From IMG/VR virus record IMGVR_UViG_3300021502_000037, positions 1,047-65,046 of that record: DNA of 64,000 nucleotides; one strand, 5' to 3'. The stretch is from a virus. Lineage: Duplodnaviria > Caudoviricetes. The notes under the pieces are model-generated. The model searched no databases and was not told the origin of the DNA. It saw only the letters and a program-made list of their open reading frames with translations. This document shows positions 36,673 through 64,000 of this stretch, piece by piece (position 1 is the stretch's first letter; the number at the start of each line of letters is the position of its first letter). The translations under genes and the position numbers were made by a program.

Positions 36673-36680
36673 AGAAATAC

Positions 36681-36708
36681 TTGACAAAGTTGTTTAGATG
36701 ATTATATT
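36681..36708 (+). promoter_or_regulatory. sigma70-like promoter
   Basis: TTGACA-N16-TATATT. Confidence 0.75.
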
Positions 36709-36778
36709 TATATAAAATTAATAGTATAATAGTTTAGCGGTTTATCAACTATAACTTGTGATTATCGGAAAGGAAATT

Positions 36779-37720
36779 ATGACAGAAAACGATATTAAAA
36801 ATTTGGCAGAAATAAAAGAGTTTTTAGAAGAAAACAACATTGAATACAGCACTGAGTTGGGTAATTTTTGTTTGTTTTATGATAGAGAACCTGAAAAAAG
36901 AAGATACGAAATCGAGTATGTGTCCTCATTAGATTTTCCTATAGAGTACCCTAAATATGATATAGAGGGTGTTAATAAAGATTATTTTTTTAATAAATCT
37001 GTAGAGGCAGAAGAAAATAATTCATTCAAGATGTGGATTAAAGATTTTGAATGGGCTGATGACAGAAAAAGACCAATACTGAAGTCACAAATACTACATG
37101 CTTATGGGGTCACACCTAACAAATTCTACGCACGTGAGTGTGTTGTGAAAGAAGTTAGTACAAAAGAAGGAAGGGCTTTTGAGGTTGAAAATTGTTTTTA
37201 TGGGAAAAGAGGGGCATCTCTTAGCTTGGGGTTGTATTTGAAAAAGGATAAGAACGGTTTGAAGAAGGATACGTTGTTGATGCTTTATACGTTTGGAAAA
37301 AATTTTTTTGGCGGAAAAAAAGCAGAAAATATATTAGAGGTACTTCGAGTTGGGACACTGAAAAAATCTTACGTTACAGGCGGGGCCTCTAAATTGCTTA
37401 AATATTTTGTGAAGAATTATGAAACGATTCAGATTGGTAAGCATGAAGTAAAGGTTGAGATTCTTAAATTTTATAGCGATTATGATCATAATCTGGGGTC
37501 TAGTATGGATGGAGTAGGTTTTAAATTCCATAGTTACTCAAAGGGAGGGTTCATGAATCTATGGCTGAAGTCTATGACGGCTAAGCATCGTCAGCCGATG
37601 AAACATAAGTGGGTTATGGAACAGATAAAAATAGGGAAATGTAGGAGTATTCCTAATGCAGGAGTTAAAACATTCCTACTTGATGTTACAACTTATAAAA
37701 AAGAAGTTGGGATAGTTTAA
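36779..37720 (+). CDS. Hef-like protein with a probable Mom/GNAT-like C-terminal domain
   Basis: YARECVVKEV...F...N...G...SLGLY...EVLR...VTGGASKLLKYF...FYSD motif set. Confidence 0.55.
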   Translation: MTENDIKNLAEIKEFLEENNIEYSTELGNFCLFYDREPEKRRYEIEYVSSLDFPIEYPKYDIEGVNKDYFFNKSVEAEENNSFKMWIKDFEWADDRKRPILKSQILHAYGVTPNKFYARECVVKEVSTKEGRAFEVENCFYGKRGASLSLGLYLKKDKNGLKKDTLLMLYTFGKNFFGGKKAENILEVLRVGTLKKSYVTGGASKLLKYFVKNYETIQIGKHEVKVEILKFYSDYDHNLGSSMDGVGFKFHSYSKGGFMNLWLKSMTAKHRQPMKHKWVMEQIKIGKCRSIPNAGVKTFLLDVTTYKKEVGIV

Positions 37721-37724
37721 AATA

Positions 37725-39033
37725 GTGTCTAAAAAATTAACAATAAAAGAGTTTATTAAAAAAGCTGAAAGTGTACATAATTTTCGATACGATTATTCAA
37801 AATCAATATATGTGAATAATCGTATCAAAATTGAAATTATATGTCCAAAGCATGGCAGTTTTTGGCAAAATCCAAATGGTCATATGAGAGGAAGTTGGTG
37901 TAAAAAATGCTCTAATAGCTATAGAAGTAAAAAAAGAAGAACGCCATTGCGAAGATTTATAGAAAGAGCAAATCAAATTCATAATAGTAAGTATGACTAT
38001 TCGTTGGTAAAATATGTAAACAATCCCCACTAAAGTAAAAATTATATGCCCTATTCATGGTATGTTTGAGCAAAAACCAAATAATCATTTACAAGGGCGT
38101 AATTGTTTGAGGTGGGGATATGAAATAAACAGTCAAAATTTTAGAAAGACACTTAAGCAATTTATTTTTGATGCTATATTAGTTCATGGTGATAAATACA
38201 ATTATTTAATGGTTGAATATATAAATGATGGAACAAAAGTTAAAATTATATGTCCAAAACACGGAGAATTTTACCAAACACCAACCCATCATCTTGGAGG
38301 CCAAGGTTGTGCTAAATGTTCCCACCATGTTTCAAAAGGTGAGACAGAGGTATCAAATTGGTTAAAATCCTTTAATTTAAATGTAGAAATAAGTAATAGA
38401 ACTATTATTAAACCAAAAGAAATTGATATTTATTTACCAGATTTCAAACTTGGTATAGAGTATAATGGAACATATTGGCATACAGAAAAATACCGAAAAA
38501 ATATAAATTATCACAGAGATAAAACATTTAAAGCAAGAGAAGCTGGTGTTCATTTGATGCAGTTTTGGGACATTGAGTGGGATGAAAAACAAGATATAGT
38601 AAAGTCAATTATTCTTAGAAAAATTGGTAAAAGTAAATATAATTATTACGCTAAAAATCTTATGGTAAAAGAAGTAAAACCAAGTGAATCGAGAGTCTTT
38701 TGTGAAGTTAATAGTATTCATGGGTTTCGTGATGGTAGAGTTCACAACGGCCTTTACTTTGGTGATGAGTTAATGGTATTAATTGTTGTGGGTAATGGTG
38801 GAGAAATGATTCGATTTGTAGTAAAAAATTACTGTTCTGTAAAAAATAGTTTTTCTAAATTATTAAAGTATTCTGATATAAAATATTCTTTTGTTGATCA
38901 AAGAGTGTTTAATGGTTTAGAGTATTATAAAAATGGTTTCAAACTTTTATATATCACGAAACCAAATTATTTTTATATAAACAAGCATTATAAATTATAT
39001 GATTGTGGGTATATGAAATTTAAAAAAAAGTAA
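37725..39033 (+). pseudogene. Frameshifted Zn-ribbon-repeat/Vsr-like homing endonuclease with degenerate Hef-like C-terminus
   Basis: Repeats F...A..VH..(K/R)YDYS...Y.N...K..IICP.HG.F.Q continue across a +1 shift at about 38025 (TKVKIICPIHGMFEQ in the next frame). Contains EIDIYLP...IEYNG.YWH. Confidence 0.75.
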
Positions 39034-39201
39034 CTTGACAAAATTATTTATATGATTATATTTATATAAGGTTAATAACATTATAAATCACCGGCGCAGT
39101 TTTTGGCGTCCGGTGTATTTGATGGCTATTAAAAATAAAATTTGACAATATTAAAATAAGTATTATGTTAATATATAAAAGAAGTAAGCAAAGGTAGTTC
39201 A
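39031..39201 (+). repeat. Dual-promoter/hairpin cassette, copy 1 (copy 2 at 50028-50201)
   Basis: TTGACA at 39035 and 39142, GC-rich hairpin at 39085-39120, ends in agcaaaggtagttca. Confidence 0.85.
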
Positions 39202-45681: not shown

Positions 45682-48138
45682 ATGAAAAAAATTAAAAGAA
45701 GTAAAAAACAAAACAAAATTAAAGTTGTAGCGTATTGTGATAGCCCCTCAGTTGCAACAGGGTTTGGAACAGTATCTAGAAATATTTTATCTGGTCTTTA
45801 CGATACAGGTAGGTATGATATTGATGTGCTTGGTATTAATTATTGGGGAGATCCTCATGAATTTCCGTTTAGAATTTTCCCAACAGGAGTTAATTCACAA
45901 CGTGACCCCTATGGGAGAGAAAAAATTTGTGGAATGATACCACAAATGCAGTATGATATTTTATTTTTCCTACAGGATACATTTATTCTCTCATTTTTGC
46001 CAGAATTAATTAAAAAACTCGAATATGAAAAAAAGAATGATTTTAGATCTATTTGTTATTTCCCCGTAGACGGTCGACCAAAAAATCAATGGATCCATAA
46101 TATAAATGCTGTCCATTATCCTGTAGCATATACGCAGTTTGGGCATGATCAAGCTAAAGAAGTTTGTCCTGAATATAAAGGATCTGATATTATAGTTCAT
46201 GGTGTAAATACAAAAGAATATTTTGTTTTACCAGAAAAAGATAGTCTTGCTTTTAGGTCTCAATATTTTGGTAGGCACTCAGAAAAATTTATTATAACCA
46301 ATTTAAATAGAAATCAACAAAGAAAAGATATACCTAGAACAATTCAAGCTTTTGCTGAATTTAGAAAAGAAGTTAAAGATAGTATTTTATATTTACACAT
46401 GGCAAGAAACGATCAAGGATGGGATTTAGTTGAAGTATGTAAAGCATATGGATTAGATATTAGTAATGATGTAATTTTTCCTGAGAATTTCGGTCCAAAT
46501 CAAGGTTATCCGAGAGAGGTTGTGAACATGATTTATAATGCAAGTGATTGTGTTGTCAGCACTACCTTGGGCGAGGGTTTTGGATTTTGTGTACATCCTA
46601 AAACCAATGTGTATACAGAAGAAGGTGTAAAATATATTGAAAATTTAACAATTACTGATAATGTTTTGTCCTCTGATGGTAGTTATAATAGTGTTGAGGC
46701 TATTATGTCTAAAAATCATGATGGAAATTTGTATGAAATAACTACTTGGATGTCAAATATACCAATAAAAGCATCTCCAGAACATGGTTTCTTGGTTAAG
46801 GGATCTAAAACAGAGTATAATTGGAAGAAGGCTTCCGAGTTAAATATAAAGGACATACTAGTTTTTCCTAAAGGCAGTGTTTGTAGTTCTAATGTTATAG
46901 ATATACTTGAGTTAATAAAACCAAATTTGTCTGTTGCTCAGTTGAATAATCTTATAGAGACTAAAAATCATTTTAAAATCCAGTCAAATTTTACAAAAGA
47001 AAGTAAATTTATACCGAAAAAGTTAAAAATAACTGAAGATTTAATGTATTTATTTGGGTTATATTTGGCTGAAGGACATGTTGGTGCTTCTAAAATGGAT
47101 AGTATAGGATTTAGTTTTCATAAAAAAGAGGTAAATTTACTTACATTTGTGGAAAATTTCATGGCAGATACTTTTGGGTTATCTTGTACATATTTAGATC
47201 ATACAAGTAGAGGGAGTGATTATAAAGGACAAACCATAGTATTTTACTCTAGTGTTTTAGCTCAACTATTTAAAACTTTATTTGGTTTGGGAGCTAGGAA
47301 TAAATATATACATAACATATTATTAACACAGCCAAATATAATGTTACAGAAATTATTATATGGTGAATTTTTAGGTGATGGTAGTTATGGTGAGTCTACT
47401 TATGAATTTTCTATATCGACTACTTCTAAACATATAGCTTATGCGTTAAGATTAATAATGGCAAAAATGGGTATTATTTCTTCAGTGAGAACAAGTAGGG
47501 TTGAATATAAAGTAAATGTTAGTGGTTCATCTAAAAGAAAGCTTCTTGATTTATTTAATATTTATTATGATACAAATAGACCTTGGGAAAAAGGTGTTGA
47601 TAGGGCTACTCAGAATGATGATTATTTATTATTACCTATTAAAGATATAACCATAACTAAGTATGCTGGGAAATTAGTAGATATACAGGTTGCAAATACT
47701 AATAATTTTGTGGCAGAAAATGTGGTGGTACATAATTCGTGGATCGAAGCAATGGCAACAAAAACTCCAGTAGTTATACCAGACAATACTGCAATGACAG
47801 AATTTGTTAATGATACTAATGGTTATTTAGTTAAAAGCGGAACAAATTCAAGTTTATTCACAGTAATTCCCAATGATAATGAAATTATACGACCGCTGGT
47901 AGATGTAGAAGATTTGGTAGATAAACTAAAACAAATTTATTATGATAGAGATGAAGCAAAATGCCGTGCTGAAACAGCTTATAAATGGGTAACGGAAGAG
48001 ATGGATTGGAAAAAAAATATTGTTCCACAATGGATAAAAGTATTTGATAAAGTTTATGCTGATTTGAAAAGCGGTAAACCAAGTAATCTTTTAGTTGATG
48101 GTAAGGCTGATAATATAATTAATGCGGAATCGTTTTAA
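45682..48138 (+). CDS. GT4-family glycosyltransferase containing an intein
   Basis: TGFG, HGVNT, NRNQQRKD and an E-X7-E motif (EGFGF|SWIE) split by the intein. Confidence 0.88.
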   Translation: MKKIKRSKKQNKIKVVAYCDSPSVATGFGTVSRNILSGLYDTGRYDIDVLGINYWGDPHEFPFRIFPTGVNSQRDPYGREKICGMIPQMQYDILFFLQDTFILSFLPELIKKLEYEKKNDFRSICYFPVDGRPKNQWIHNINAVHYPVAYTQFGHDQAKEVCPEYKGSDIIVHGVNTKEYFVLPEKDSLAFRSQYFGRHSEKFIITNLNRNQQRKDIPRTIQAFAEFRKEVKDSILYLHMARNDQGWDLVEVCKAYGLDISNDVIFPENFGPNQGYPREVVNMIYNASDCVVSTTLGEGFGFCVHPKTNVYTEEGVKYIENLTITDNVLSSDGSYNSVEAIMSKNHDGNLYEITTWMSNIPIKASPEHGFLVKGSKTEYNWKKASELNIKDILVFPKGSVCSSNVIDILELIKPNLSVAQLNNLIETKNHFKIQSNFTKESKFIPKKLKITEDLMYLFGLYLAEGHVGASKMDSIGFSFHKKEVNLLTFVENFMADTFGLSCTYLDHTSRGSDYKGQTIVFYSSVLAQLFKTLFGLGARNKYIHNILLTQPNIMLQKLLYGEFLGDGSYGESTYEFSISTTSKHIAYALRLIMAKMGIISSVRTSRVEYKVNVSGSSKRKLLDLFNIYYDTNRPWEKGVDRATQNDDYLLLPIKDITITKYAGKLVDIQVANTNNFVAENVVVHNSWIEAMATKTPVVIPDNTAMTEFVNDTNGYLVKSGTNSSLFTVIPNDNEIIRPLVDVEDLVDKLKQIYYDRDEAKCRAETAYKWVTEEMDWKKNIVPQWIKVFDKVYADLKSGKPSNLLVDGKADNIINAESF
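46588..47736 (+). mobile_element. Intein with LAGLIDADG endonuclease (383 aa)
   Basis: Starts CVHP, ends VVHN|S. LAGLIDADG-like blocks LFGLYLAEG and GEFLGDG. Confidence 0.92.
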
Positions 48139-48148
48139 GGAATTTTAT

Positions 48149-48409
48149 ATTTAAATAATAAGAAAACCACTAAGTCTTTAGCTTAGTGGTTGAATTATTA
48201 CAAATTAAAACTTGACAAAAGCTTTTACACGTATTATATTATAATTAACATTAATCCTGCTATAAATGAAAACCAAGTTTATAGTAGGATTAATACATTT
48301 TTAAACATATTAACCGCAGGGACTGCGGGGTTAGCCTACCAAATTTAGATGGTAACAAACATCTAATTACTTAGGAAACCCGTAAATCTTTAGCTTAGGG
48401 GTAGTTCAT
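48149..48409 (+). mobile_element. Non-autonomous IS200/IS605-type element (261 bp; left end, promoter, omegaRNA-like 3' part, right end)
   Basis: Target TTAT at 48145-48148. Left end AAAA + CCACTAAG-TCTTTAG-CTTAGTGG hairpin. tnpB-end-like ACCGCAGGGACTGCGGGGTTAGCC. Right end GAAA + hairpin + TAGTTCAT. Confidence 0.8.
48212..48240 (+). promoter_or_regulatory. sigma70-like promoter inside the non-autonomous element
   Basis: TTGACA-N17-TATATT. Confidence 0.7.
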
Positions 48410-49979
48410 GGATGTAAAAATATTAGAAGAAGCAGGTTATAAACACGCATTATATGGTATATCTTTGAGTTATAATAAAGATATAGAAAATATGGAGAAA
48501 GTTTCTAAATCTTTGTGTAAATTAGATGGTGGCCATAATAAATTTTTAGAAAGTATTGTGGTATGGTTAGAAATAAATGCTGCTAGATATTGGTGGCAAG
48601 AATTTGATACATATAGAGTTGGTATCACCAAACAATCTGAGTGTTTTGATGATAAAACTGAAATCTTAACTTTAGATGGTTGGAAATATTTTAAAAATTT
48701 AAAAAATGAAGATTTATTTTGTACGATGAATATAAAAAATAGAAATATAGAATATCAGAAAGCAACTAATTATATAGAGAATGATTTTAATGGGGAGGTA
48801 CTTTCTATTAATGGTAAATCAATAGATTTAATTGTAACTAAAAATCATAATATGGTAATAAAATGTAGACGAAGTGAAAATTTGAGAATTATACCCGCTG
48901 ATAAATTTACACATTCACATGGTATTCCAAAGAAAGCAATATGGAAGGGTAAAGAGGTGTCAGAGTTTATACTACCTATGGTACAGAAAGAAACGAAATA
49001 CTCTACATTTTACCCAGAAAAAAAAATTAATATGGATTTATGGTTAAAATTTTTTGGTTTTTGGTTGGCAGAAGGATGTGTTTTTTGTAATCGTAATAAA
49101 AAAAATTACATATCATCCGCTTGTCAAGTTGAGGATAGTAAATATATACCTGAAATAGATGCAATTTTTGATGAATTACCCTTTAAGGTTTATAGATATG
49201 TTGAGAAGAGAAAAGATAAGAAATCAATAATTGTATGGAAAATTTCTAATAAACAGTTATATTTTTATTTATTAGAATATAAAGGAGCATTGAATAAATA
49301 TATAAATAAAGATTTACTTACTTTATCTAAAAGACAATTAAACATTCTTGAAAAATGGTTAATGGTTGGAGATGGTTGTGTTACTTTTAAGCACTATATT
49401 TACATTTCAATTAGTAAAAAATTAATTGATACTGTTCAAGAACTATGGTTAAAATTAGGGTATTCCTCTTCTATTAGAATTCATCGTGAAGCTCAAAATA
49501 ATTGTAAACGTGTTTATTCAATTGCAAGACATAGAACGTCTTATGCATATGCTTTGAAAAATAATATAAAAAAAGTAAATTATAAAGGTAAAATTTATTG
49601 TGTTGAGGTTCCTAATCATATTATTTTAGCTCGTAGAAATGGAAAGATAGTATGGACTGGTAATTCAACAATACATACACTTTTAAAAAGTAGATTAACT
49701 CAAAATAATTTTGAATCTGATATACCAGAAAAATTTTTAAATTATTTAAATACAATTATTACTAATTATCATAATAGTAAGAATAAAAATAAAGCTGAAT
49801 TTACAAAGGAAATAAAAAATATCCTTCCAGAAGGTTTTTTACAGCGAAGAATTGTGTGCACAAATTATAAAGTTTTAAAAAACATGATTAATCAAAGAAA
49901 GAATCATACTTTAGGTGGTTGGAAAATGTTTATAAATCATTTAAAAAATAATTTAGAACATTCAGATTTAATATTTTAA
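48408..49979 (+). CDS. thyX: ThyX-like flavin-dependent thymidylate synthase homologue containing an intein
   Basis: GGHNKFLE, RYWWQEFDTYR, SE|STIH, LPEGF.Q.R....NYK.L.N...QRK.H...W. Spliced product about 182 aa. Confidence 0.7.
   Translation: MDVKILEEAGYKHALYGISLSYNKDIENMEKVSKSLCKLDGGHNKFLESIVVWLEINAARYWWQEFDTYRVGITKQSECFDDKTEILTLDGWKYFKNLKNEDLFCTMNIKNRNIEYQKATNYIENDFNGEVLSINGKSIDLIVTKNHNMVIKCRRSENLRIIPADKFTHSHGIPKKAIWKGKEVSEFILPMVQKETKYSTFYPEKKINMDLWLKFFGFWLAEGCVFCNRNKKNYISSACQVEDSKYIPEIDAIFDELPFKVYRYVEKRKDKKSIIVWKISNKQLYFYLLEYKGALNKYINKDLLTLSKRQLNILEKWLMVGDGCVTFKHYIYISISKKLIDTVQELWLKLGYSSSIRIHREAQNNCKRVYSIARHRTSYAYALKNNIKKVNYKGKIYCVEVPNHIILARRNGKIVWTGNSTIHTLLKSRLTQNNFESDIPEKFLNYLNTIITNYHNSKNKNKAEFTKEIKNILPEGFLQRRIVCTNYKVLKNMINQRKNHTLGGWKMFINHLKNNLEHSDLIF
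48642..49664 (+). mobile_element. Intein with LAGLIDADG endonuclease (341 aa)
   Basis: Starts CFDD, ends WTGN|S. Blocks FFGFWLAEG and LMVGDG. Confidence 0.92.
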
Positions 49980-50025
49980 TTTAATTAGCGGTTGATTAAA
50001 TAACCAATCGCTAATTAAATTAAAA
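49974..50025. terminator. Long inverted repeat (21-bp stem, 10-nt loop) after thyX; terminator or processing hairpin
   Basis: ttttaatttaattagcggttg ... caatcgctaattaaattaaaa. Confidence 0.6.
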
Positions 50026-50027
50026 AA

Positions 50028-50201
50028 TAACTTGACAAAATTATTTAGATGATTATATTTATAGAAGGTTAATAACACCCTAAATCACCGGCGCCGGCTG
50101 TTTGGCGTCCGGTGTATTTGATTGTTATGAAAAATAAAACTTGACATTAATAAACTAAGCATTATATTATTAGATAAGGTTAATTAAGCAAAGGTAGTTC
50201 A
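50028..50201 (+). repeat. Dual-promoter/hairpin cassette, copy 2
   Basis: TTGACA at 50032 and 50141, hairpin at 50082-50119, continues into the tRNA-like RNA. Confidence 0.85.
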
Positions 50202-50261
50202 ATGTAGAATATTCGGTGACCAGCCGGAAGATGCAGGTGCAATTCCTGCCCTTTTGCTCCA
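50188..50261 (+). tRNA. Non-canonical tRNA-Gly(ACC)-like RNA
   Basis: Cloverleaf GCAAAGG/CTTTTGC, U73, encoded CCA. Anticodon arm TTCGG-TGACCAG-CCGGA; T arm GCAGG-TGCAATT-CCTGC. Confidence 0.7.
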
Positions 50262-50277
50262 AATAAAATAAAATAAA

Positions 50278-50964
50278 ATGATTAAACATAAAGATTTAAT
50301 GGGCAAAACATTCGGGAGATTAAAAGTTATTGGAAAGGAAGGCCCAGCAAAAAATAGAATAATGCAATGGTTATGTGAATGTTCGTGTGGCAATATATTA
50401 ATAGTAAGATCCAATCATCTTATACATGGGCATACAAGAAGTTGTGGATGTTTACAGAAAGAAAAAGTTACGGATGTTTTTATTCCAGATCTTATTGGAA
50501 AAAAATTTGGTAGACTTACAGTGCTGAGTTTAAGTAAAAAAAGAAAAAATAGAGCTGCAGTATGGAGATGTAAATGTGATTGTGGGAATTATACAGAAGT
50601 AATAACATCATGTCTTATAATTGGACATACAAAATCGTGTGGCTGTCTTCAAACAGAATCTTGTTCTGGTGATAATAATTTTAATTGGAGAGATGACACC
50701 TCAAAAGGAATTTATTGTCGAGACTGGACTAATGATTTAAAAGATTGTGTTAAAGAACGTGATGAATATAAATGTTTAAATCCTGATTGTTGGGGTAAAG
50801 ATAAGACATTATCTGTTCATCATATTAATTATAATAAAAAATCTTGTGGTCTAGAAAATCTTATTACAGTTTGCAGATCTTGTAATACTAGAGCAAATAC
50901 AGATAGAGAATGGCACGAGGCTTGGTATAAAGCAATTTTATATAGTAGATATGGTTATATTTAA
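50278..50964 (+). CDS. HNH homing endonuclease with FGRL.V...W.C.C.CG repeats
   Basis: Two DL.GK.FGRL.V...W.C.C.CG...SCGCLQ repeats plus the same HNH tail as 4262 and 44806. Confidence 0.85.
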   Translation: MIKHKDLMGKTFGRLKVIGKEGPAKNRIMQWLCECSCGNILIVRSNHLIHGHTRSCGCLQKEKVTDVFIPDLIGKKFGRLTVLSLSKKRKNRAAVWRCKCDCGNYTEVITSCLIIGHTKSCGCLQTESCSGDNNFNWRDDTSKGIYCRDWTNDLKDCVKERDEYKCLNPDCWGKDKTLSVHHINYNKKSCGLENLITVCRSCNTRANTDREWHEAWYKAILYSRYGYI

Positions 50965-50965
50965 C

Positions 50966-50993
50966 TTGACAATGTTAATATATGTATTATATT
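50966..50993 (+). promoter_or_regulatory. sigma70-like promoter for the second tRNA-like RNA
   Basis: TTGACA-N16-TATATT. Confidence 0.7.
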
Positions 50994-51010
50994 ATATGTA
51001 AGGTGAATGA

Positions 51011-51084
51011 GCAAAAGTAGTTTAATGTAAAATATCTGATGACCAATCAGAAGATGTTGGTTCAATTCCTGTCCTTTTGCTCCA
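51011..51084 (+). tRNA. Second tRNA-Gly(ACC)-like RNA (weaker T stem)
   Basis: GCAAAAG/CTTTTGC, U73, CCA. Anticodon arm TCTGA-TGACCAA-TCAGA, with compensatory changes relative to copy 1. Confidence 0.62.
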
Positions 51085-51120
51085 AATAATTAATTTTAAA
51101 TGTTAAGGAAAAATTATGAA

Positions 51121-51600
51121 CAGCTTTAGAGCCGCAATCCCAGAAAGGTCTTCGGGGTTAGGCTCTTGACAAATGAAATTTAATACTTATTATTAATTTA
51201 AAGGGAAAATTTATGATAACAAGAGAATTAAAATTACAATTACAATTAAAAACTAAGCAGAAAAACTTATGCAATTTAATAGGTATTTCTCAATTAAGAC
51301 AATTTATTTCCTACAAGAGTGACATACACGGTAGAAAATGTGTTTTAGTTGATTCAAAATATACCACCATGACTTGTTCAATTTGTGGAGTCAAAACTGG
51401 TCCTACAAGTTTAAACGGGCTTGCTGTAAGAAATTGGGAGTGTAGTGCTTGTGGAGCACAACATGACCGCGACATTAATGCGGCTAATGTAATTCTCAAT
51501 TTTGGGCTGGGATACAGCCTCGATAACGCTGCAACCCACGCCTGTAAAGGGCCGGGGATTTGTAAACTGGAATCGTCGGGCGGTGCCCGATGAGTATCAA
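51121..51600 (+). mobile_element. IS200/IS605-family element (480 bp) with internally deleted tnpB, inserted 3' of ATGAA
   Basis: Left end has CAAT at +15..18 before a hairpin. Right end GAAT + CGTCGGGC-GGT-GCCCGATG hairpin + AGTATCAA. No target duplication. Confidence 0.88.
51213..51593 (+). pseudogene. tnpB: Internally deleted TnpB
   Basis: N-terminal MITRELKL fused to the C-terminal YK...VD..YTT.TCSICG...W.CSACG..HDRDINAA. RuvC-I and RuvC-II are missing. Confidence 0.85.
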
Positions 51601-53773
51601 AATAAAAGGTATAAAATATGTGGGGCCACTAACAGATGGTTCTGGTTATGGAAAAGCTTGTAGAGAAAATATAAAAGCACTATTATCTGTTGGAGTAAAT
51701 TTAACATTATCTCCTATATCTTTTGAAACAATTAGACCAGATTTAGGTGGTGATGGTGAAATATTAAAAAAATTAATAAATAAATCTATAGATTATAATA
51801 TAGTTATTATTCATACAACACCTGAATTTTGGGAAAAATATAGAGAAGATGGTAAATTAAATTTGGGATACACTATATGGGAAACTACAAAATTACATCC
51901 GGCGTGGAAAGATTATATTAATAATAATGTTGAAAAAGTTTTGGTAGGTTGTGAATGGAATGTAGATGTCTTTAAAGAAAGCGGAATAACATTACCAATA
52001 GAAGTTATTCCACATCCAATAAATATACCAGATGAAAATGTAAAAGCATTCAATATAAATGGTGTTTCTGATGATACTTTTACATTCTACAGTATTTTTC
52101 AATGGTGTTACGATGATAAAACTAGGGTATTAACTGAAGACGGATTTAAATATTTTAAAGATTTAACATATGATGATAAGTTGGCTACATTAAATTTAAA
52201 TACGGAGGAATTAGAATATCATAAACCAGATAATCTTGTAAGTTTCGATAGAAAAGATAAAATGATATCTATACAAGGTAATTTATTTGACGTTTGTGTT
52301 AATCCAGAACATAAAATGGTTGTTAGAAATGCGGACAGTAGTGATTGGTTTTTAAAACCTTTAAAAGATATGTTAAGTAGTAATAAAAAAAATGAATTAA
52401 TTGTTAGCGATAAATATAGAGCAAAGAAAAATTGTAAATGGTTTGGAGAAGAATGTGAAAACTTTTATTTACCTAAATATAAGCATGGTAAAGATGAAAA
52501 ATTAGATGAATTTACCATAATTTTAATGGACGACATGTTGGAATTTATAGGTTGGTATATTTCAGAAGGTTCCACCTATAAGGGTGAAAGTGGTTATGTT
52601 ACTACAATTACACAATCTAAAAGTGCTGTATATATAAAAGAAATTACAGAATGTATAAAACGTATGGGATTTACTCCTTTTAAAAGGGATAAGGATATTA
52701 GATTTAATTCTAAAGACATGTATTATTTGTTAAAAAATTTAGGTACATCTCAATATAAATTTATTTTTAATTGGGCAAAAAAATTAAGTTCAAGACAAAT
52801 AATTATTCTATTAACATCATTATTTAAAGGCGATGGTAGTTTATATGAGAATGGGGATTGGGTAAAGTATACTACAACGTCCAAAAAATTAGCAGAAGAT
52901 GTTCAGGAATGTTTGTTAAAAGTAGGAATGTCTGGAGCAATTTCTATATCAGATCCAACAAAAAAGAAACCTGGAACAATAGATGGAAGAGAAATTAGAG
53001 GAAAATTACTACAATATACTGTATCTGTGAATAGAAAATTTAATGAGCCGAGTATGTATTATGCAAATGTAAAAGAAATTAATTATGATGGTAAAATATA
53101 TTGTGCGGAAATAAAAAATCATACTATGTTAGTTGAACGTAATGGTAAAATATTATTTTCTGGGAATACAGAAAGGAAAAATCCTGTAGCAGCTATAAAA
53201 GCCTATTGGTATGCTTTTCAAAATGATGAGAATGTAGCATTAGTATTAAAAACATATAGAAGTGACTATTCTGAACAAGAAAAAGAAGCAATTAGAAGGA
53301 CACTTAATAGGTTAAAAGATATTATGCCTATGGATACTTATCCAAAAATATATTTAATTCCAGATTTATTGACAGATAATGAAATAAATGGTTTACATAA
53401 ACGTGGGGATTGTTATTTAAGTACAGACCGTGGTGAAGGTTTTGGTTTAAGTGGTGCTGCTGCTGGTTCTTTTGGCAATCCAATAATGGTAACAGGTTTT
53501 GGCGGGGCTTTAGAATATGCTAAAGAAGATAATAGTTATTTAATTGATTATCAGTTAACACCGGTTTTCGGACAGCCATGGAGTCCGTGGTATAAGGGTA
53601 CTCAACTATGGGCGGAAACAAGTGTATTACACACATCTCAGTTATTAAGACATGTTTATGAAAATCAAGATGAAGCAAAACAAAAAGGTTTAAAGTTACA
53701 AAAATTTATAAAAGATAATTTATCTTATGAAACTATAGGTAATAAAATAATTAAAGAAATTGAGATGATATAG
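51590..53773 (+). CDS. GT4-family glycosyltransferase containing an intein
   Basis: SGYG, YTIWET, FQW|TERKN, RGEGFGL motifs. The start MSI is supplied by the IS right end. Confidence 0.88.
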   Translation: MSIKIKGIKYVGPLTDGSGYGKACRENIKALLSVGVNLTLSPISFETIRPDLGGDGEILKKLINKSIDYNIVIIHTTPEFWEKYREDGKLNLGYTIWETTKLHPAWKDYINNNVEKVLVGCEWNVDVFKESGITLPIEVIPHPINIPDENVKAFNINGVSDDTFTFYSIFQWCYDDKTRVLTEDGFKYFKDLTYDDKLATLNLNTEELEYHKPDNLVSFDRKDKMISIQGNLFDVCVNPEHKMVVRNADSSDWFLKPLKDMLSSNKKNELIVSDKYRAKKNCKWFGEECENFYLPKYKHGKDEKLDEFTIILMDDMLEFIGWYISEGSTYKGESGYVTTITQSKSAVYIKEITECIKRMGFTPFKRDKDIRFNSKDMYYLLKNLGTSQYKFIFNWAKKLSSRQIIILLTSLFKGDGSLYENGDWVKYTTTSKKLAEDVQECLLKVGMSGAISISDPTKKKPGTIDGREIRGKLLQYTVSVNRKFNEPSMYYANVKEINYDGKIYCAEIKNHTMLVERNGKILFSGNTERKNPVAAIKAYWYAFQNDENVALVLKTYRSDYSEQEKEAIRRTLNRLKDIMPMDTYPKIYLIPDLLTDNEINGLHKRGDCYLSTDRGEGFGLSGAAAGSFGNPIMVTGFGGALEYAKEDNSYLIDYQLTPVFGQPWSPWYKGTQLWAETSVLHTSQLLRHVYENQDEAKQKGLKLQKFIKDNLSYETIGNKIIKEIEMI
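52106..53167 (+). mobile_element. Intein with LAGLIDADG endonuclease (354 aa)
   Basis: Starts CYDD, ends FSGN|T. Blocks FIGWYISEG and LFKGDG. Confidence 0.92.
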
Positions 53774-53776
53774 CTT

Positions 53777-55126
53777 GTGTTTAAAAAATTAAATATTGAA
53801 GATATAAGAAAAGAATTTAAAGATAAAGGTAAAACTTTAATTACTGAAATTTATATTAATAGTAAGCAATCATTAGATTATATTTGTAAAAATGGACATA
53901 AACATCATATGAGAATTGACCATTTACGAAGTGGTGTTGATTGCCCTTATTGTAATGGTATGGCCAAAAAATCAATAGAAAAAATAAAACCGTATTTTTC
54001 TATAGAAGGGTATGAATTGCTTTCAGATGCATACGAAAATGCTTTTGGAGAATTAATTTGTAAATGTAAATTAGGTCATGTATTTAAAACTACTTGGCAT
54101 AGTTGGAGCTCTAGTAAAAACAGGTGTCCAATATGTAATAAAGGTGTTAGATTTGATTTTGATATAGTTAAAAAAGATATTGAAGATGGTGGTTATGAAT
54201 TAATAACTACTGAATATATTAATTCAGCACAAATTTTACATACTAAATGTCCCAAAAATCATGATTACTTTGTTAATTTTGGAAATTGGAAGCATAAAAA
54301 ATCTAGATGTCCGCGTTGTTCAGGTAATGGTGCTTCTTCTCCAGAATATATTATAAGGGAATTTTTAGATATAAATAATATTGATTATTTAATTAATGAT
54401 AAAAAAATTATTGCTCCATATGAATTAGATATAGTTATCCAAGATAAAAAGATTGCTATAGAATATTGTGGTTTATATTGGCATTCTGAAAGTAAAGGAA
54501 AATGTAATGATTATCATATACACAAATATAATTTATGTAAAGAAAAAGGTTATAGGCTAATAACAATTTTTGAAGATGAGTATATATTTAATTATGATGT
54601 AGTTAAATACAATCTTAATTCTATTTTGAAATTGAATAATATTAAAACAAAACAATTAACTAATTATAATATTATAGAAGTATCAAATATAGAAGCGAAA
54701 GTGTTTTTTAATAAAAATTCATTTATAGGTTGTTATGCAGATACAGATATAAAGTTAGGTATATTTATAAACGGTAATTTGGTGGGTGTTGGTTTATTTT
54801 CTTATCAAAACTCTGATAATTATTTATTAATTGGGTTTTGTTCTAACATGGTATATAGAAAAAGAGATATTTTATTTAAAATTATAGAGTATTTTAAAAT
54901 TAATTATAGGTGGAGAACTATTTCTGTAGAAGTTGATAAAAGATGGTATAGCGGTGACATATTTTACAGATTAGGATTTGATTTTATAAAAATTATTAAA
55001 CCTATTAGTTGGAATTTTAAATCGAAGAAAAGAGTAACTAATAAAATAAAAGATATAAATTATGATAAGATTTGGGATTGTGGTAAAAATAAATATATGT
55101 TAAAAAATAGAATGGAGTTAACATGA
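53777..55126 (+). CDS. Zn-ribbon-repeat/Vsr-like homing endonuclease with Hef-like C-terminus
   Basis: Three C..(G/N)H...CP.C repeats, ELDI...IAIEYCGLYWHS, IFEDE, VDKRW, IWDCG. Confidence 0.75.
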   Translation: MFKKLNIEDIRKEFKDKGKTLITEIYINSKQSLDYICKNGHKHHMRIDHLRSGVDCPYCNGMAKKSIEKIKPYFSIEGYELLSDAYENAFGELICKCKLGHVFKTTWHSWSSSKNRCPICNKGVRFDFDIVKKDIEDGGYELITTEYINSAQILHTKCPKNHDYFVNFGNWKHKKSRCPRCSGNGASSPEYIIREFLDINNIDYLINDKKIIAPYELDIVIQDKKIAIEYCGLYWHSESKGKCNDYHIHKYNLCKEKGYRLITIFEDEYIFNYDVVKYNLNSILKLNNIKTKQLTNYNIIEVSNIEAKVFFNKNSFIGCYADTDIKLGIFINGNLVGVGLFSYQNSDNYLLIGFCSNMVYRKRDILFKIIEYFKINYRWRTISVEVDKRWYSGDIFYRLGFDFIKIIKPISWNFKSKKRVTNKIKDINYDKIWDCGKNKYMLKNRMELT

Positions 55127-55629
55127 AAAAAACATTAAATGTAGGTTGTGGCGAAAGAATTTTTAAAGAATATCCTGAAGGATATCAATGTATAAATTAT
55201 GATGAACGTAATCTTGATTGTGTTGATGTTGTTGGTGATGTAAGAAAATTAGATTTTCCAAATGAAGAGTTCGATTATATAATTGCATTTGATATTATAG
55301 AACATTTTAAAATTTCTGAAACGGTTAATATTTTAACCGAATGGAAAAGAGTACTTAAAGTTGGCGGTACTATAGAGTTTAGGCTGCCAAATTTGGAGGA
55401 AATATGTAAAGATTATTTGAAAAGAAAAGATGAGAATCGTGTTGATGGGGCTCCTATGGCACAGTACTTCTCTTGGCTGCTTTATGGAGGACAAGATTAT
55501 TCAGGTAACTTTCATTATATTGGGTTTGACCGTCGCCTTATTGCTTATGAATGTAATAAAGTCGGTCTGCTTGAGGTTTCTTGGAAGGCAGAAGGGTATA
55601 ATATGATAGTTAAGTGTAGGAGACCATAA
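55123..55629 (+). CDS. SAM-dependent methyltransferase (type 11)
   Basis: LNVGCG, GDVRKLDF...FD, IIEH, RVLKVGG. Confidence 0.88.
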   Translation: MKKTLNVGCGERIFKEYPEGYQCINYDERNLDCVDVVGDVRKLDFPNEEFDYIIAFDIIEHFKISETVNILTEWKRVLKVGGTIEFRLPNLEEICKDYLKRKDENRVDGAPMAQYFSWLLYGGQDYSGNFHYIGFDRRLIAYECNKVGLLEVSWKAEGYNMIVKCRRP

Positions 55630-56285
55630 TGATTAAAGTAATTAGTGCTAATTTTGTTAAGAATGAAGCGCACTGTATAGAAAGGATGCTTGACGGTGTG
55701 CAGCCTTATGTTTCTGAAAGTTATGTGCTTATAGACAGAGAAACTACAGATAATACTAAAGAGATATGTGAGGCTCGTGGTTGTATAGTAGATTATTTTG
55801 ATTTTGAAAATTTTTCTAAGGTATGGAACCAGTTATTGTATTGGGTTAATGACAAAAGCGATTGGACAGTTTTTATCGCCCCCGATGAGACTATAGACAA
55901 AAATTTTGGTGAAATGTTAGTTCCTTTGGCTAATAAAATTTCTAGTACAGAGGTAGATGGTGTGTGGTTTTCTAGACGACACTGGCTGGATTTAGAGAAA
56001 AAAGAAGAATACACTGCACAAAATTGGTATCCTGATTGGCAACTTAGGTTTATACGGAATGATTTTCCTAGAGTGCACCTACAGAATTATGTGCATGAGT
56101 GGTCGGTTGGCGTAAGAAAATCTATTAGAATGCCTGGAAAAGATATACATCACTACAATATGTATTGGAAACCGAAAATTGACTACGATTTTGAAAAGAT
56201 GAATCAGCTGTATGAGCGTTTGACGCGACAACAAAACGAAGACGGTGGACATAACATATGGCCAAATGAGTTTAAGAAGGAGTAA
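55629..56285 (+). CDS. GT2-family glycosyltransferase
   Basis: VKNE..CI, D..TTD.T, PDE, YPDWQLR, VHE. Confidence 0.82.
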   Translation: MIKVISANFVKNEAHCIERMLDGVQPYVSESYVLIDRETTDNTKEICEARGCIVDYFDFENFSKVWNQLLYWVNDKSDWTVFIAPDETIDKNFGEMLVPLANKISSTEVDGVWFSRRHWLDLEKKEEYTAQNWYPDWQLRFIRNDFPRVHLQNYVHEWSVGVRKSIRMPGKDIHHYNMYWKPKIDYDFEKMNQLYERLTRQQNEDGGHNIWPNEFKKE

Positions 56286-56288
56286 TAT

Positions 56289-58117: not shown

Positions 58118-58122
58118 ATGAA

Positions 58123-58187
58123 CAGTTTTAGAACCACAGTCACAAAATGGTGCTTAGTGTTGTTTGGGGGTACTCGATGAGTATCAA
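58123..58187 (+). mobile_element. 65-bp minimal derivative of the ATGAA-targeting IS200/IS605 element
   Basis: ATGAA|CAGTTTTAGAACCACAGT...GGTACTCGATGAGTATCAA matches both ends of the 51121-51600 element. Confidence 0.78.
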
Positions 58188-59070: not shown

Positions 59071-59072
59071 AT

Positions 59073-59684: not shown

Positions 59685-59685
59685 T

Positions 59686-60424: not shown

Positions 60425-60445
60425 TTTATACTGGAGGAATTTTCA

Positions 60446-63878: not shown

Positions 63879-63879
63879 A

Positions 63880-64000
63880 CAGCTTTAGAGCCGCAATCCC
63901 AGAAGGGTCTTCGGGGTTAGGCTCTTGACAAATGAAATTTAATGTTTATTATTAATTTAAAAGGAAAATTTATGATAACAAGAGAACTAAAATTACAATT
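63880..64000 (+). mobile_element. Third copy (left end) of the ATGAA-targeting IS200/IS605 element; tnpB begins at 63972 and runs off the window
   Basis: Near-identical to 51121-51241. Preceded by ATGAA whose TGA is the DUF362 stop codon. Confidence 0.88.

Follow-up and report, generated by a model that had tools for sequence, protein, structure and literature searches.

Non-canonical tRNA-Gly(ACC)-like genes with a constrained tRNA fold in a hydrothermal-vent phage, and their possible use as glycine donors outside translation

To our knowledge, few regularities of tRNA biology are as general as U33 and the absence of a tRNAGly(ACC). A single gene departs from both, and selection has maintained it in at least three diverged alleles, two of which lie in a hydrothermal-vent phage whose lineage is seen in vent metagenomes of 15 studies. 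The window, meaning the whole 64,000-nucleotide stretch of phage DNA that was analysed, contains two 74-nt cloverleaf genes with an encoded CCA end (50188-50261 and 51011-51084), and the question raised by this locus is what an RNA with such an anticodon loop does. The core of the locus consists of the following features.

50188..50261, + strand: copy 1 of the tRNA-Gly-derived gene; loop UGACCAG (G33, ACC), T loop UGC, CCA; 104.6 bits with model R1
50278..50964, + strand: HNH homing-endonuclease-like gene between the copies, 228 aa; Pfam HNH, phrog_374
51011..51084, + strand: copy 2 of the tRNA-Gly-derived gene; loop UGACCAA, T loop UUC, weakened T stem, CCA; 101.3 bits with model R1

The original prediction placed here two 74-nt RNAs with CCA and glycine identity elements, and the sequence, ARAGORN (-ps) and Rfam recover both at these coordinates. 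Low scores from tRNA finders had also been expected: ARAGORN returns 0 genes in the 64-kb window at its default threshold, and only at the relaxed threshold (-ps) are the two copies called, each as a 74-nt tRNA-Gly(acc) with ends identical to those listed. Rfam RF00005 matches copy 1 with 35.0 bits and copy 2 with 35.3 bits (gathering score 29; E-values for 64 kb of 0.0013 and 0.0011, respectively). These are the only gathering-level RNA matches in the window (Rfam), and the only tRNA matches in the whole 65,046-base record.

The cloverleaf, as drawn by ARAGORN -ps, has acceptor, D, anticodon and T stems of 7, 4, 5 and 5 bp. The bacterial GlyRS identity set, established in E. coli work, comprises G1-C72, C2-G71, G3-C70, U73, C35 and C36. 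Both copies carry G1-C72, C2-G71, U73, C35 and C36 together with the encoded CCA, whereas pair 3-70 is A3-U70, in place of G3-C70, in these copies and in a third allele, found on a metagenome contig (L135). The departures from canonical tRNA that had been predicted (G33, ACC, a D loop lacking GG, an extra nucleotide, and TGC in copy 1) are all present. In all three alleles, the U33 of canonical elongators is replaced by G33, position 34 is A, and the 6-nt D loop AAUGUA has a single G, leaving the G18-G19 pair incomplete. The T loop reads UGC in copy 1 and UUC in copy 2 and L135. A surplus nucleotide interrupts the acceptor and T stems in all three alleles; ARAGORN places it as an unpaired C between the T stem and the acceptor 3' strand (65/66), whereas the Rfam alignments show instead a bulged U after acceptor pair 2, between pairs 2 and 3. 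Pair 51-63 is A-U, U-U or U-A across the alleles, and pairs 49-65 and 50-64 are G-C and C-G in two of the three. A shifted anticodon register (GAC or CCA as anticodon, with loops of 8-9 nt) lacks stem support in every allele.

Thirteen of the 74 positions differ between the two copies. One D-stem pair and two anticodon-stem pairs have changed at both bases, the latter two being the compensatory changes reported in the prediction; a single-sided change leaves four further pairs intact, and one T-stem pair of copy 2 is broken. The minimum-energy fold of copy 1 is the cloverleaf (-21.6 kcal/mol, z -2.08). Variants of copy 2 in other samples carry T51072C, which turns a T-stem G-U into G-C, or C51073T, at the surplus nucleotide.

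Whether the structure is under selection, as had been proposed, is addressed by the L135 allele, the one homologue found outside this phage, which has conserved G33/ACC and no random decay. It shares the length, anticodon loop and D loop (with its single G) of the two copies, and G33, ACC, the surplus nucleotide, CCA and U73 are all retained, with 14-17 other positions changed, mostly in stems and mostly in a pair-preserving manner. It scores 37.9 bits with RF00005 (gathering score 29) and is rejected by ARAGORN at the default threshold. The L135 locus has a single RNA copy and no HNH gene, and the allele sits 30 nt upstream of the orthologous glycosyltransferase, matching the placement of copy 2, which is its positional orthologue.

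Pairwise divergence among the three alleles amounts to 13-17 of 74 positions, and RNAalifold returns the cloverleaf as their consensus, unprompted. Because 61 of 63 stem cells pair across the alleles and six pairs are changed on both sides, the structure is held by selection rather than decaying. Slid registers pair at only 43-62%, and 11 of 500 shuffles of the three alleles attain the observed value (63 of 500 with two alleles, a comparison that has no power with two sequences). Variable columns are concentrated in stems (17/42, against 5/32 unpaired; Fisher p 0.023), and random substitutions retain equally many pairs in 3 to 417 of 5000 trials, depending on the allele pair. G1-C72, C2-G71, U73, C35, C36 and CCA are invariant, and acceptor pairs 4-7 vary with compensation. 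All three alleles also have U8, A14, A15/U48, A21, A26/A44, U54/A58, G53-C61 and C56, which are tertiary-contact positions. The conservation of any single loop base carries little statistical weight, since there are only three alleles. The odd features are themselves the conserved part of the RNA.

These data bear directly on the simplest alternative, in which a mutation-crippled tRNA-Gly gene was duplicated through homing traffic and the copies are dying pseudogenes that look like tRNAs only because they are young. Such an account would fit the rejection of three of three alleles at the ARAGORN default threshold, the several broken invariant positions, and the state of copy 2, the T stem of which is weak (one U-U mismatch and two G-U pairs) and the minimum-energy fold of which is not the cloverleaf. 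It would also fit the density of selfish elements at the locus (HNH, Hef-like genes, inteins and a TnpB fragment) and the absence of the RNA from more distant relatives (two of two viral loci and 11 of 12 metagenome loci). However, alleles that differ at 13-17 of 74 positions still pair in 61 of 63 stem cells with six double changes, loops vary less than stems, random substitutions seldom keep the pairs, and it is the odd features that are conserved. Moreover, the second phage keeps the promoter hexamers, CCA and position, and a population variant of copy 2 repairs G-U to G-C. Decay is the most improbable of the explanations considered here. Both elements are tentatively best explained as live genes for a glycine tRNA derivative with a constrained tRNA fold, a view drawn from sequence comparison.

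The RNA pair descends from a phage-type tRNA-Gly(GCC). Within the anticodon loop, only positions 33 and 34 differ from the nearest canonical phage tRNA-Gly(GCC) (loop UUGCCA), and the two nearest such tRNAs carry G-C at 51-63. This pattern is central to a possible, though rather unlikely, alternative, nearly as probable as the donor reading favoured below, in which the RNA is a working elongator: A34 would read GGU by Watson-Crick pairing, and the changes of U33 and G34 would defeat an anticodon nuclease that attacks tRNA-Gly(GCC) around 33/34, such that the uncleavable loop lets phage translation continue when the host tRNAGly is destroyed. Positions 33 and 34 are the loop bases that GlyRS does not need, and GGT makes up 624 of 1357 glycine codons (46%) in 39 ORFs, against 101 (7%) for GGC. 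Two copies with strong promoter-like sites are as expected of a supply function. Anticodon-loop changes in phage tRNAs are predicted to escape VapC, PrrC and colicins (PMC10264068), phage tRNAs are described as rescuing from a tRNA-cutting retron effector (PMC11555353), ACC/GGU is reported to be nearly as good as GCC/GGU in an IRES-based tRNA mimic (PMC6720975), and a natural G33 tRNA, Candida tRNASer(CAG), decodes (PMC5041475, PMC11415595). The same two sources, however, present G33 as exceptional in an elongator tRNA and as lowering decoding, and the nuclease-evading cases published keep the anticodon itself. Decoding also offers no account of three conserved features, namely the absence of G18, the extra nucleotide within the EF-Tu-binding helix and a 51-63 pair that is not G-C, and neither a glycine-specific anticodon nuclease nor a host is known for this phage.

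The surroundings of the RNA genes comprise promoter-like sites, a repeated module and the start of a glycosyltransferase gene.

50022..50187, + strand: promoter module upstream of copy 1, with P1 (50032-50059), a GC-rich hairpin (50086-50114) with a U-rich tail, and P2
50141..50168, + strand: promoter-like site P2 of copy 1, TTGACA-16-TATATT, ending 19 nt before the RNA
50966..50993, + strand: promoter-like site P2 of copy 2, TTGACA-16-TATATT, ending 17 nt before the RNA
39025..39201, + strand: paralogous P1-hairpin-P2 module, about 90% identical, upstream of dnaB
51085..51118, + strand: conserved spacer, AAGGA and the original glycosyltransferase ATG (51116-51118)
51119..51599, + strand: inserted mini-element with a GC-rich hairpin end, a promoter-like site at 51166 and a TnpB C-terminal fragment
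51590..53773, + strand: glycosyltransferase carrying a LAGLIDADG intein; opens a sugar/glycan gene cluster

The predicted promoters correspond to the P2 sites 17-19 nt upstream of each copy, which match the consensus at 11 of 12 positions, 'promoter' here meaning a consensus match only. Both sites align with that of L135, where the promoter hexamers are kept. The module hairpin (-25.2 kcal/mol, z -3.4) belongs to a P1-hairpin-P2 arrangement that is repeated in this phage. Before dnaB, the repeated module ends at 39188-39201 in the same 14 nt as the start of copy 1, which supply AAGG and the A of the dnaB ATG; judged by sequence, this stump is a recombination scar of the tRNA-like gene.

The RNA precedes the glycosyltransferase in both phages. 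That gene starts at its original ATG in L135 and in a variant from run X11, in which a joint of 51118 to 51599/51600 (depth 90) shows the mini-element to be absent. The TnpB fragment (51213-51593, 126 aa, PF07282 E 9.9e-21) has a stop codon overlapping the new glycosyltransferase ATG, and a second copy of the mini-element, 95% identical, begins at 63868. A function of the RNA as TnpB guide was rejected: the mini-element is a separate 481-nt insertion, absent from the X11 variant and L135. Pairing of the anticodon loop with a nearby UGGUCA was rejected as well, as all 15 TGGTCA sites lie scattered outside the locus.

Given this placement, the cloverleaf could act in cis as a leader, cut by RNase P and 3' processing enzymes so as to determine where the downstream mRNA (from the glycosyltransferase cluster or the HNH gene) begins, how stable it is or how it is translated, the released RNA being functionless. 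All three alleles have a promoter-like site on one side and a promoter-less ORF on the other, with 16-31 nt separating the RNA from the ATG; copy 2 and L135 share a conserved spacer before the glycosyltransferase ATG; and the same promoter module precedes dnaB with only the 14-nt stump. Yet an acceptor/T minihelix suffices for processing, which leaves the invariant anticodon loop, D loop, C35-C36 and U73 unexplained; dnaB manages without a cloverleaf; and co-transcription of tRNA and mRNA is ordinary and compatible with a function of the RNA itself. A purely cis-acting role is very improbable.

The prediction also linked the RNA pair to the HNH gene, a link that the comparison of loci contradicts: none of the 80 loci that contain HNH relatives has an RNA of this kind, and L135 has the RNA without HNH. 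The HNH gene has neither a promoter-like site of its own nor a Shine-Dalgarno sequence, and two other HNH genes in the window are 79-82% identical to its 3' half at the DNA level. Homing-element traffic accounts for the duplication and for the HNH gene; duplication and mosaic alleles are by-products of homing. A separate observation is a joint of 50137 to 50963, corresponding to one copy and no HNH, which, being seen in one contig at depth 2.4 with 30 letters on the shorter side, is a hint only.

Searches for further alleles covered several collections. BLAST against named phages gave HNH fragments only for the whole locus and 27-nt matches only for copy 1 alone. Five DNA patterns scanned against viral contigs yielded no usable allele, two of them giving 0 matches. 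Of 11 stretches from one of these patterns, only one (L009) is tRNA-like, and it is unrelated; two other viral-contig matches were rejected as coding, GC-rich DNA (L018) and as lying inside an ORF with 12.2 bits for model R1 (L144). One pattern scanned against metagenome contigs gave 0 matches. The 38 stretches from genome contigs are mostly (chiefly in Bacteroidota records) the reverse complement of the coding motif GWSPDI[VI]HC and contain no full R1 cloverleaf at the pattern site; two R1 matches with E <= 0.01 (L161 and L171) lie away from that site and resemble ordinary tRNAs. ARAGORN -ps on 131 loci (977,767 bases), among them 33 loci surrounding relatives of the upstream gene and 80 surrounding HNH relatives, found no acc anticodon except in the loci of the phage's own genome (L001 and L002), and model R1 gave canonical tRNAs or weak matches only on those relatives' loci. 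Two viral relatives of the glycosyltransferase (L014 and L015) are without the 1.6-kb block, with no tRNA in their entire records.

What, then, could a selected tRNA-Gly derivative do outside decoding? We tentatively favour, again from sequence features, the reading that the RNA would be charged with glycine but poorly suited to EF-Tu and the ribosome, and would donate its glycine outside translation. A separate sigma-70-type promoter would drive transcription of each copy as a leader to the following ORF, from which it would be excised as a 74-nt CCA-ending RNA, to be charged with glycine by the host GlyRS through the invariant acceptor end and C35-C36. G33 (no U-turn), the missing G18, the non-G-C 51-63 pair and the surplus nucleotide would exclude it from EF-Tu and the ribosome. 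Poor use by EF-Tu and the ribosome would, in this proposal, reserve the activated glycine that the RNA carries for a tRNA-dependent transferase. We infer each of these steps (transcription, processing, charging and exclusion from translation), as well as the identity of the user. The departures shared by the three alleles sit at the ribosome and EF-Tu interfaces, which supports a donor role. The retention of A34, in contrast, is left unexplained by such a role, and its fit to the commonest glycine codon favours decoding. Also against a donor role, a Pfam scan of 40 of the 48 window ORFs of at least 100 aa detected no family of the Fem, MprF or L/F-transferase type, in a sequence that covers 22% of the genome.

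The best candidate users of the RNA are Mom-like GNAT domains in Hef-like proteins of these phages, as Mu Mom uses Gly-tRNAGly. Three window ORFs contain such a stretch.

36758..37720, + strand: third ORF with a Mom-like stretch; D at R151, M at Y159; no Pfam family
38062..39033, + strand: Hef-like ORF (Vsr-like nuclease and Mom-like GNAT) directly upstream of the dnaB module; tblastn 2e-12 to the L135 ORF
53777..55126, + strand: Hef-like ORF (zinc finger, Vsr-like nuclease, Mom-like domain); PDB 3r3p mobile intron protein, E 1.2e-06

A 2026 study showed that Mu Mom transfers glycine from Gly-tRNAGly to N6 of adenine in dsDNA; R111, S124 and R151, plus D149 and Y159, are reported as essential residues, and activity needs an HTH-like insertion (PMC13219725). 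The ORF directly upstream of the L135 allele is Hef-like and has a Mom-like GNAT domain. Mu Mom chains take ranks 1-2 in Foldseek (8bv8_A/B, E 1e-07, 217-218 columns; model pLDDT 92.3), the next GNAT following at 1.5e-04, and hhalign to Mom gives 92% probability. Its match to the Pfam Mom family PF25680 (26.8 bits, E 4.7e-06) is just under the cut-off of 27.1, and many of its relatives have precomputed PF25680 matches. Equivalents of R111, D149, R151 and Y159 are kept in this ORF and in 20-22 of 22 Hef-like family members. The S124 equivalent is not conserved in this family (Y in 11, T in five and S in one of 22; also C and others), and sequence alignments to Mom end at residue 169 (phmmer) or 179 (hhalign), before the HTH-like insertion.

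Within the window, the 38062-39033 ORF is the only paralogue with all four of these equivalents, and it adjoins the module bearing the 14-nt tRNA-like scar. The 53777-55126 ORF carries G where Mom has R111 and F where Mom has Y159, and is probably not catalytic as a Mom. Neither RNA copy adjoins a Hef-like gene in the window, and in three of three named phages inspected the Hef-like genes are without an adjoining tRNA gene, such that a general Hef-tRNA linkage is not seen; the adjacency in L135 may merely reflect a hot spot for homing elements. Since Mu Mom takes all three E. coli tRNAGly isoacceptors (PMC13219725), a private donor is unnecessary for Mom, which weighs against a donor role.

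The identity elements that would allow charging also bear on a decoy or sponge, that is, an abundant, uncleavable tRNA-Gly look-alike that would sequester a host protein and have no role as an amino-acid carrier. Its target could be an anticodon nuclease, a GNAT toxin that acetylates Gly-tRNAGly, a nuclease of the CCA tail, or GlyRS through binding. The tRNA shape and the C35-C36-A37 face are kept and the 33/34 cleavage neighbourhood is altered, near-consensus promoter-like sites precede the two copies, and the loop displays ACCA, the sequence of the tRNA 3' end, which may be meaningful in this context. Poliovirus IRES domain V is described as mimicking the tRNAGly anticodon stem-loop with ACC and as binding GlyRS (PMC3384309), and defence systems are reported to target tRNA tails and anticodon loops (PMC12851939, PMC11042736). 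A pure decoy, however, would need neither the full GlyRS acceptor set nor U73 nor an encoded CCA, and yet these are invariant; no cognate defence protein is known, and no published demonstration of decoy tRNAs of this kind was found. We regard a decoy as distinctly improbable.

The glycine-donor role could take a more specific form, in which the phage's own translation-excluded glycyl-tRNA would be the dedicated co-substrate of the Mom-like GNAT domains in Hef-type proteins. This combination is improbable; if it held, phage adenines would be glycylated or carbamoylmethylated without draining the ribosomal Gly-tRNA pool, a DNA modification that could shield the phage's own homing sites or evade restriction. 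It would provide the first virus-encoded non-proteinogenic tRNA and a biochemical role for the GNAT half of widespread 'homing endonucleases', as the C-terminal half of these Hef-like proteins, the genes of which occur in 350 phage records, is Mom-like. More generally, if the RNA does not decode, it would be the first viral counterpart of the staphylococcal cell-wall tRNAs and, together with the Mom finding, would make tRNA-dependent DNA modification with a phage's own tRNA directly testable. If it does decode, it would be a natural G33/A34 elongator of a bacterial system, with a loop remodelled at two positions that GlyRS ignores, and a handle on a glycine-specific tRNA nuclease.

Homing-endonuclease genes lodged in phage tRNA gene regions are known from T4 segB and the T5 tRNA region. 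The present locus resembles these in having free-standing HNH/Hef-type genes beside tRNA genes, although homing accounts for the arrangement, with two copies and HNH between them, and not for the non-canonical RNA. The replacement of U33 under selection is shared with Candida tRNASer(CAG) and other natural G33/A33 tRNAs (G33 in Candida), in which G33 is thought to damp decoding (PMC5041475, PMC11415595). As described there, these tRNAs are mistranslating, their anticodon and amino acid disagreeing, whereas the phage ACC and acceptor both specify glycine. Poliovirus IRES domain V is likewise a viral stem-loop that shows an ACC 'glycine anticodon' with conserved CC, albeit in a 6-nt loop of a eukaryotic-virus mRNA leader that is presented without a full cloverleaf or CCA (PMC3384309). 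The nuclease-evading phage tRNAs are similar in that a loop is altered beside cleavage sites and amino-acid identity is kept, but the cases reported keep U33 and the anticodon and are otherwise canonical decoders (PMC10264068, PMC11555353). In the phage pair, compared with the nearest phage tRNA-Gly(GCC), U33 and the wobble base have both changed, and the tRNA body likewise departs from canonical form.

Mu Mom is a proven case of viral Gly-tRNAGly use outside translation and the best structural match of the L135-adjacent ORF. It uses host tRNAs, however, a phage-encoded tRNA appearing nowhere in the main text of that report (PMC13219725), and the phage proteins described here are instead Hef-like fusions with a nuclease domain and without S124.

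The non-proteogenic tRNAGly species NP1-NP3 of Staphylococcus aureus and S. epidermidis are glycine donors for FmhB/FemA/FemB; their genes have a TGC/TGT T loop and a position 19 that is not G, and their weak EF-Tu binding is ascribed to weak first T-stem pairs, A49-U65, U50-A64 and A51-U63 (PMC7826273). The analogy drawn in the original prediction is accurate in what it says of these tRNAs, and it fits the phage RNA in part: UGC occurs in one of three alleles, and only pair 51-63 is weak throughout, whereas all three first T-stem pairs are weak in NP1-NP3 (PMC7826273). NP1-NP3 further differ, according to the same source, in keeping U33 and UCC, in being without both G18 and G19, and in having no surplus nucleotide. 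The phage gene is viral and of GCC-type origin, with no Fem transferase among the 40 window ORFs scanned. In both cases, the charging elements are kept and the D-loop and T-loop rules are broken, with a UGC T loop (in copy 1 only), no G at one of positions 18/19 and a weak 51-63 pair; and the users of NP1-NP3 are GNAT-fold transferases, as is Mom.

Both tRNA-like elements were confirmed from the sequence at their predicted positions, together with every feature listed for them in the original prediction, and relaxed ARAGORN calls reproduce the predicted ends exactly.

Features of the tRNA-like locus
50188–50261, + strand, tRNA-Gly(ACC)-like gene, copy 1
50278–50964, HNH gene
51011–51084, + strand, tRNA-Gly(ACC)-like gene, copy 2
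51119–51599, + strand, mini-element with only the C-terminal 126 amino acids (TNB/zinc-ribbon domain) of a TnpB, together with a GC-rich hairpin end and a promoter-like site of its own
51590–53773, + strand, glycosyltransferase ORF

At its default threshold ARAGORN detects no genes in the window; only at a relaxed threshold are both copies called, as 74-nt tRNA-Gly(acc). The Rfam tRNA model scores copy 1 at 35.0 bits and copy 2 at 35.3 bits (cut-off 29); no other RNA match in the window reaches the gathering level, and the record contains no other tRNA match. A promoter-like TTGACA-16-TATATT site (11 of 12 consensus matches) lies 17–19 nt upstream of each copy, and such sites are enriched in the window (13 versus 4.8 expected, with 13 reached in none of 100 shuffles). 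In sequence terms the pair is real, and it appears to represent a functional, constrained RNA gene.

The window comprises nearly all of a 65,046-base IMG/VR virus record with a CheckV completeness of 22%, which marks it as a fragment of a large phage. Its GC content is 30.6%, and all long ORFs lie on the + strand. The left part is taken up by genes for very large, presumably virion, proteins, of which most lack a Pfam match. Further right are a sliding clamp, RecA, DnaB, primase, DnaJ, RuvC and an exonuclease, then a glycosyltransferase run and, at 55123–63878 downstream of the tRNA-like locus, a sugar-modification cluster (methyltransferase, three family-2 glycosyltransferases, GFO/IDH/MocA oxidoreductase, hexapeptide acyltransferase, LicD, cytidylyltransferase, Asn-synthase-like protein and DUF362), pointing to the assembly or decoration of a glycan by the phage. 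The window is rich in selfish elements, with HNH genes, Hef-like genes and LAGLIDADG inteins present three times each and the mini-element with the TnpB fragment twice. The inteins occupy three neighbouring genes (45682–48138, 48408–49979 and 51590–53773), two of them glycosyltransferases and one a gene of unknown function (phrog_6721). The gene at 48408 has a long leader (48250–48405) behind a promoter-like site at 48212; this leader contains GC-rich hairpins and repeats 42 nt of the upstream terminator region (family D12). Elsewhere, a perfect 115-nt direct repeat (28540–28654 and 28706–28820, spacing given as 166 nt) falls between two large ORFs. Near-identical DNA is present in hydrothermal-vent and marine-sediment metagenomes (18 runs from 15 studies among the matches listed, none of these runs on record as RNA).

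Pattern scans of viral, metagenome and genome collections returned no further allele. A metagenome search with the downstream glycosyltransferase retrieved 12 loci, and a covariance model built from copies 1 and 2 matched one of them, contig L135, at 79.6 bits. This third allele scores 37.9 bits with the Rfam tRNA model and is called by ARAGORN at the relaxed threshold only. It lies on a 2,024-base contig encoding a glycosyltransferase N-terminus 85% identical in protein sequence to that of the window, and has 74 nt, the loop UGACCAA, the D loop AAUGUA, U73, an encoded CCA and a surplus nucleotide that is U in place of C. A TTGACA-16-TATATT site is found 17 nt upstream and the glycosyltransferase ATG 30 nt downstream, and the spacer between allele and glycosyltransferase aligns with that of copy 2. 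L135 carries a single copy, with no HNH gene and no TnpB fragment, and its upstream gene, the orthologue of 48408–49979, has no intein. At more distant loci, where the glycosyltransferase is ~60–68% identical, the RNA is absent (11 of 12 metagenome loci and both viral loci). The position ahead of the glycosyltransferase would suit a cis-acting leader, a reading of the RNA that we consider very improbable. The family is small, consisting of three alleles, all from vent-type metagenomes.

A tandem tRNA-like array with the same D arm as copy 2 was observed at 5217–5594 (− strand) of L009, a 5.8-kb contig labelled as a giant-virus MAG. Three of its members are without U33 (ACGUCAA and ACAUCCA with C33, UACUCAA with A33) and carry C54. 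L009 is an unrelated genome, yet it holds another cluster of U33-less tRNA-like genes.

L135 shows the ancestral state of the locus, in which a single promoter-plus-RNA unit immediately precedes the glycosyltransferase. In a contig of sequencing run X11, 51118 is joined to 51599/51600 with a single G between; because this joint restores the L135 reading ATG-GAA-ATA-AAA, 51119–51599 is an inserted mini-element. It landed just after the glycosyltransferase ATG and supplies a new, overlapping start. A second copy, 95% identical, begins at 63868 (63868–64000 in the window), and in each case the insertion point directly follows TTATG(A). An extra block consists of copy 1, the HNH gene and the second promoter; a form without this block is hinted at by one weak contig of run X8, where 50137 is joined to 50963. 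Among 80 loci that encode relatives of the HNH protein, the RNA is found at none, and the HNH gene is a passenger instead of a partner.

The module upstream of copy 1 (promoter-like site P1, a GC-rich hairpin and promoter-like site P2) recurs at ~90% identity upstream of dnaB. There it ends in the first 14 nt of copy 1 (39188–39201), which provide dnaB with a ribosome-binding site and with the first base of its ATG. This stretch is a recombination scar, a piece of a tRNA gene recycled as mRNA leader, and shows the tRNA-like gene to have been a breakpoint for cassette shuffling. Among the module sites (36671–36743, 39025–39201 and 50022–50187), P1 is nearly identical in all three, and in two of them the GC-rich hairpin, with its U-rich tail, and then a second promoter come after it. 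Summed contig depth over the hairpin part is several-fold above the flanks in vent metagenomes; for the hairpin, a tiny promoter-proximal RNA, an attenuator and a protein-binding site are all conceivable.

Pairwise comparison of the three alleles gives 13, 14 and 17 differences over 74 positions. In the ARAGORN structure, 61 of the 63 stem cells hold standard pairs and 6 of the 21 pairs are changed on both sides; sliding the 3′ partners by 1–3 columns lowers pairing to 43–62%, and the observed pairing values are reached in 11 of 500 column shuffles. Unaided, RNAalifold returns the same cloverleaf plus a possible 32–38 pair. Variable columns are more frequent in stems (17 of 42) than elsewhere (5 of 32; Fisher p = 0.023), and when substitutions are placed at random, matched to those observed in number and transition share, as many pairs survive in 3 to 417 of 5,000 trials, depending on the allele pair. 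Copy 2 variants in other samples are T51072C, which turns a G–U into a G–C pair, and C51073T, which affects the surplus nucleotide. All positions behind the tertiary contacts of the L-shape are present, and the conserved parts of the three alleles are exactly the odd ones. This is not the pattern of random decay, with the caveat that in three alleles any single base carries little weight. Random decay among homologues was the outcome that the original prediction had named as counting against it; since the alleles keep their odd features and paired stems, that test favours the prediction, and pseudogenes are the least probable of the explanations weighed here.

Compared with 50,697 phage records, copy 2 has its best named matches in annotated tRNA-Gly(GCC) genes, those of Bacillus phage Nate (87.5% over positions 5–43, E = 1e-3) and, weakly, Salmonella phage 1-23 (75.9% over positions 7–59, E = 2). 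In a four-way alignment of copies 1 and 2 with these two canonical genes, the anticodon loop reads UUGCCA in the canonical genes and UGACCA in the copies, differing at positions 33 and 34 only. The D loop has GG in the former and one G in the latter, the 51–63 pair is G51–C63 versus A–U or U–U, and the surplus nucleotide is absent from both canonical genes. This small set of shared derived changes identifies the copies as a tRNA-Gly(GCC) derivative.

The GlyRS identity set and the CCA are invariant in the three alleles, and acceptor pairs 4–7 vary with compensation, which makes charging of the RNA with glycine probable. The altered loop would fit, and the intact charging set speaks against, the decoy role that the original prediction had offered besides glycyl donation, and which we regard as distinctly unlikely. 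The departures from tRNA rules lie where a tRNA meets the translation machinery. At the U-turn position the base is G33; according to PMC5041475 and PMC11415595, natural tRNAs with G33 are exceptional, mistranslating ones, and the base seems to curtail their decoding. G18 is missing from the elbow, as is U55 in copy 1, and the 51–63 pair is never G–C in the three alleles. The surplus nucleotide interrupts the acceptor/T helix, to which EF-Tu binds. In staphylococci, as documented in PMC7826273, poor binding to EF-Tu is seen for tRNAGly species that have UGC/UGU T loops, a base other than G at position 19 and weak T-stem pairs; these supply GNAT-fold Fem transferases instead. We tentatively prefer a charged but translation-handicapped glycyl carrier. 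The anticodon favours another reading, a nuclease-proof GGU decoder: A34 is a Watson–Crick match to GGU, which accounts for 624 of the 1,357 glycine codons in 39 ORFs (GGC for 101), yet tRNAGly(ACC) is described as ‘banished from nearly all organisms’ in PMC6720975. Such a decoder is possible but ranks a close second, a soft order that depends on the weight given to the defects outside the anticodon.

For a glycyl carrier, a candidate user is encoded beside the L135 allele. A Hef-like ORF of 308 amino acids (L135 466–1392), ending 41 nt upstream of the allele, carries a Vsr-like (EDxHD-type) nuclease domain N-terminal to a GNAT domain. It scores 26.8 bits with the Pfam Mom family, just under the cut-off of 27.1 (E = 4.7e-06), and the PHROGs family listed is ‘Mom-like DNA modification protein’. 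The best PDB sequence match is phage Mu Mom (8bv8, E = 0.063), to which a 22-sequence family profile aligns with 92% probability. Foldseek with the AlphaFold2 model (pLDDT 92.3) places 8bv8 in the top two positions (E = 1e-07; next GNAT 1.5e-04), and Mu Mom thus appears, from the model, to be the closest solved structure to the C-terminal GNAT domain. Equivalents of Mom R111, D149, R151 and Y159 are kept in 20–22 of the 22 family members, and the essential S124 is not (four of five alignable important residues conserved). Mom moves glycine from Gly-tRNAGly to N6 of adenine in dsDNA, where the glycyl then rearranges to a carbamoylmethyl group (Silva et al. 2026, PMC13219725, main text). Three window ORFs carry the Mom-like domain (36758–37720, 38062–39033 and 53777–55126); only 38062–39033, directly upstream of the dnaB module bearing the 14-nt scar, keeps all four residues. 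Against this link, Mom accepts all host isoacceptors (main text of PMC13219725), relatives of these Hef-like ‘homing endonucleases’ occur in 350 phage records, no tRNA neighbours the Hef-like gene in the three named phages inspected, and homing elements are concentrated in this region. Among the papers searched, none connects Hef-like or EDxHD proteins with Mom, and the main text of the Mom paper (PMC13219725) makes no mention of phage-encoded tRNAs. A glycyl carrier with a Mom-like user, as one part of the carrier reading, is considered unlikely. The tRNA-like genes constitute no new category: their known relatives in kind are phage tRNAs with altered loops and non-proteogenic tRNAGly.
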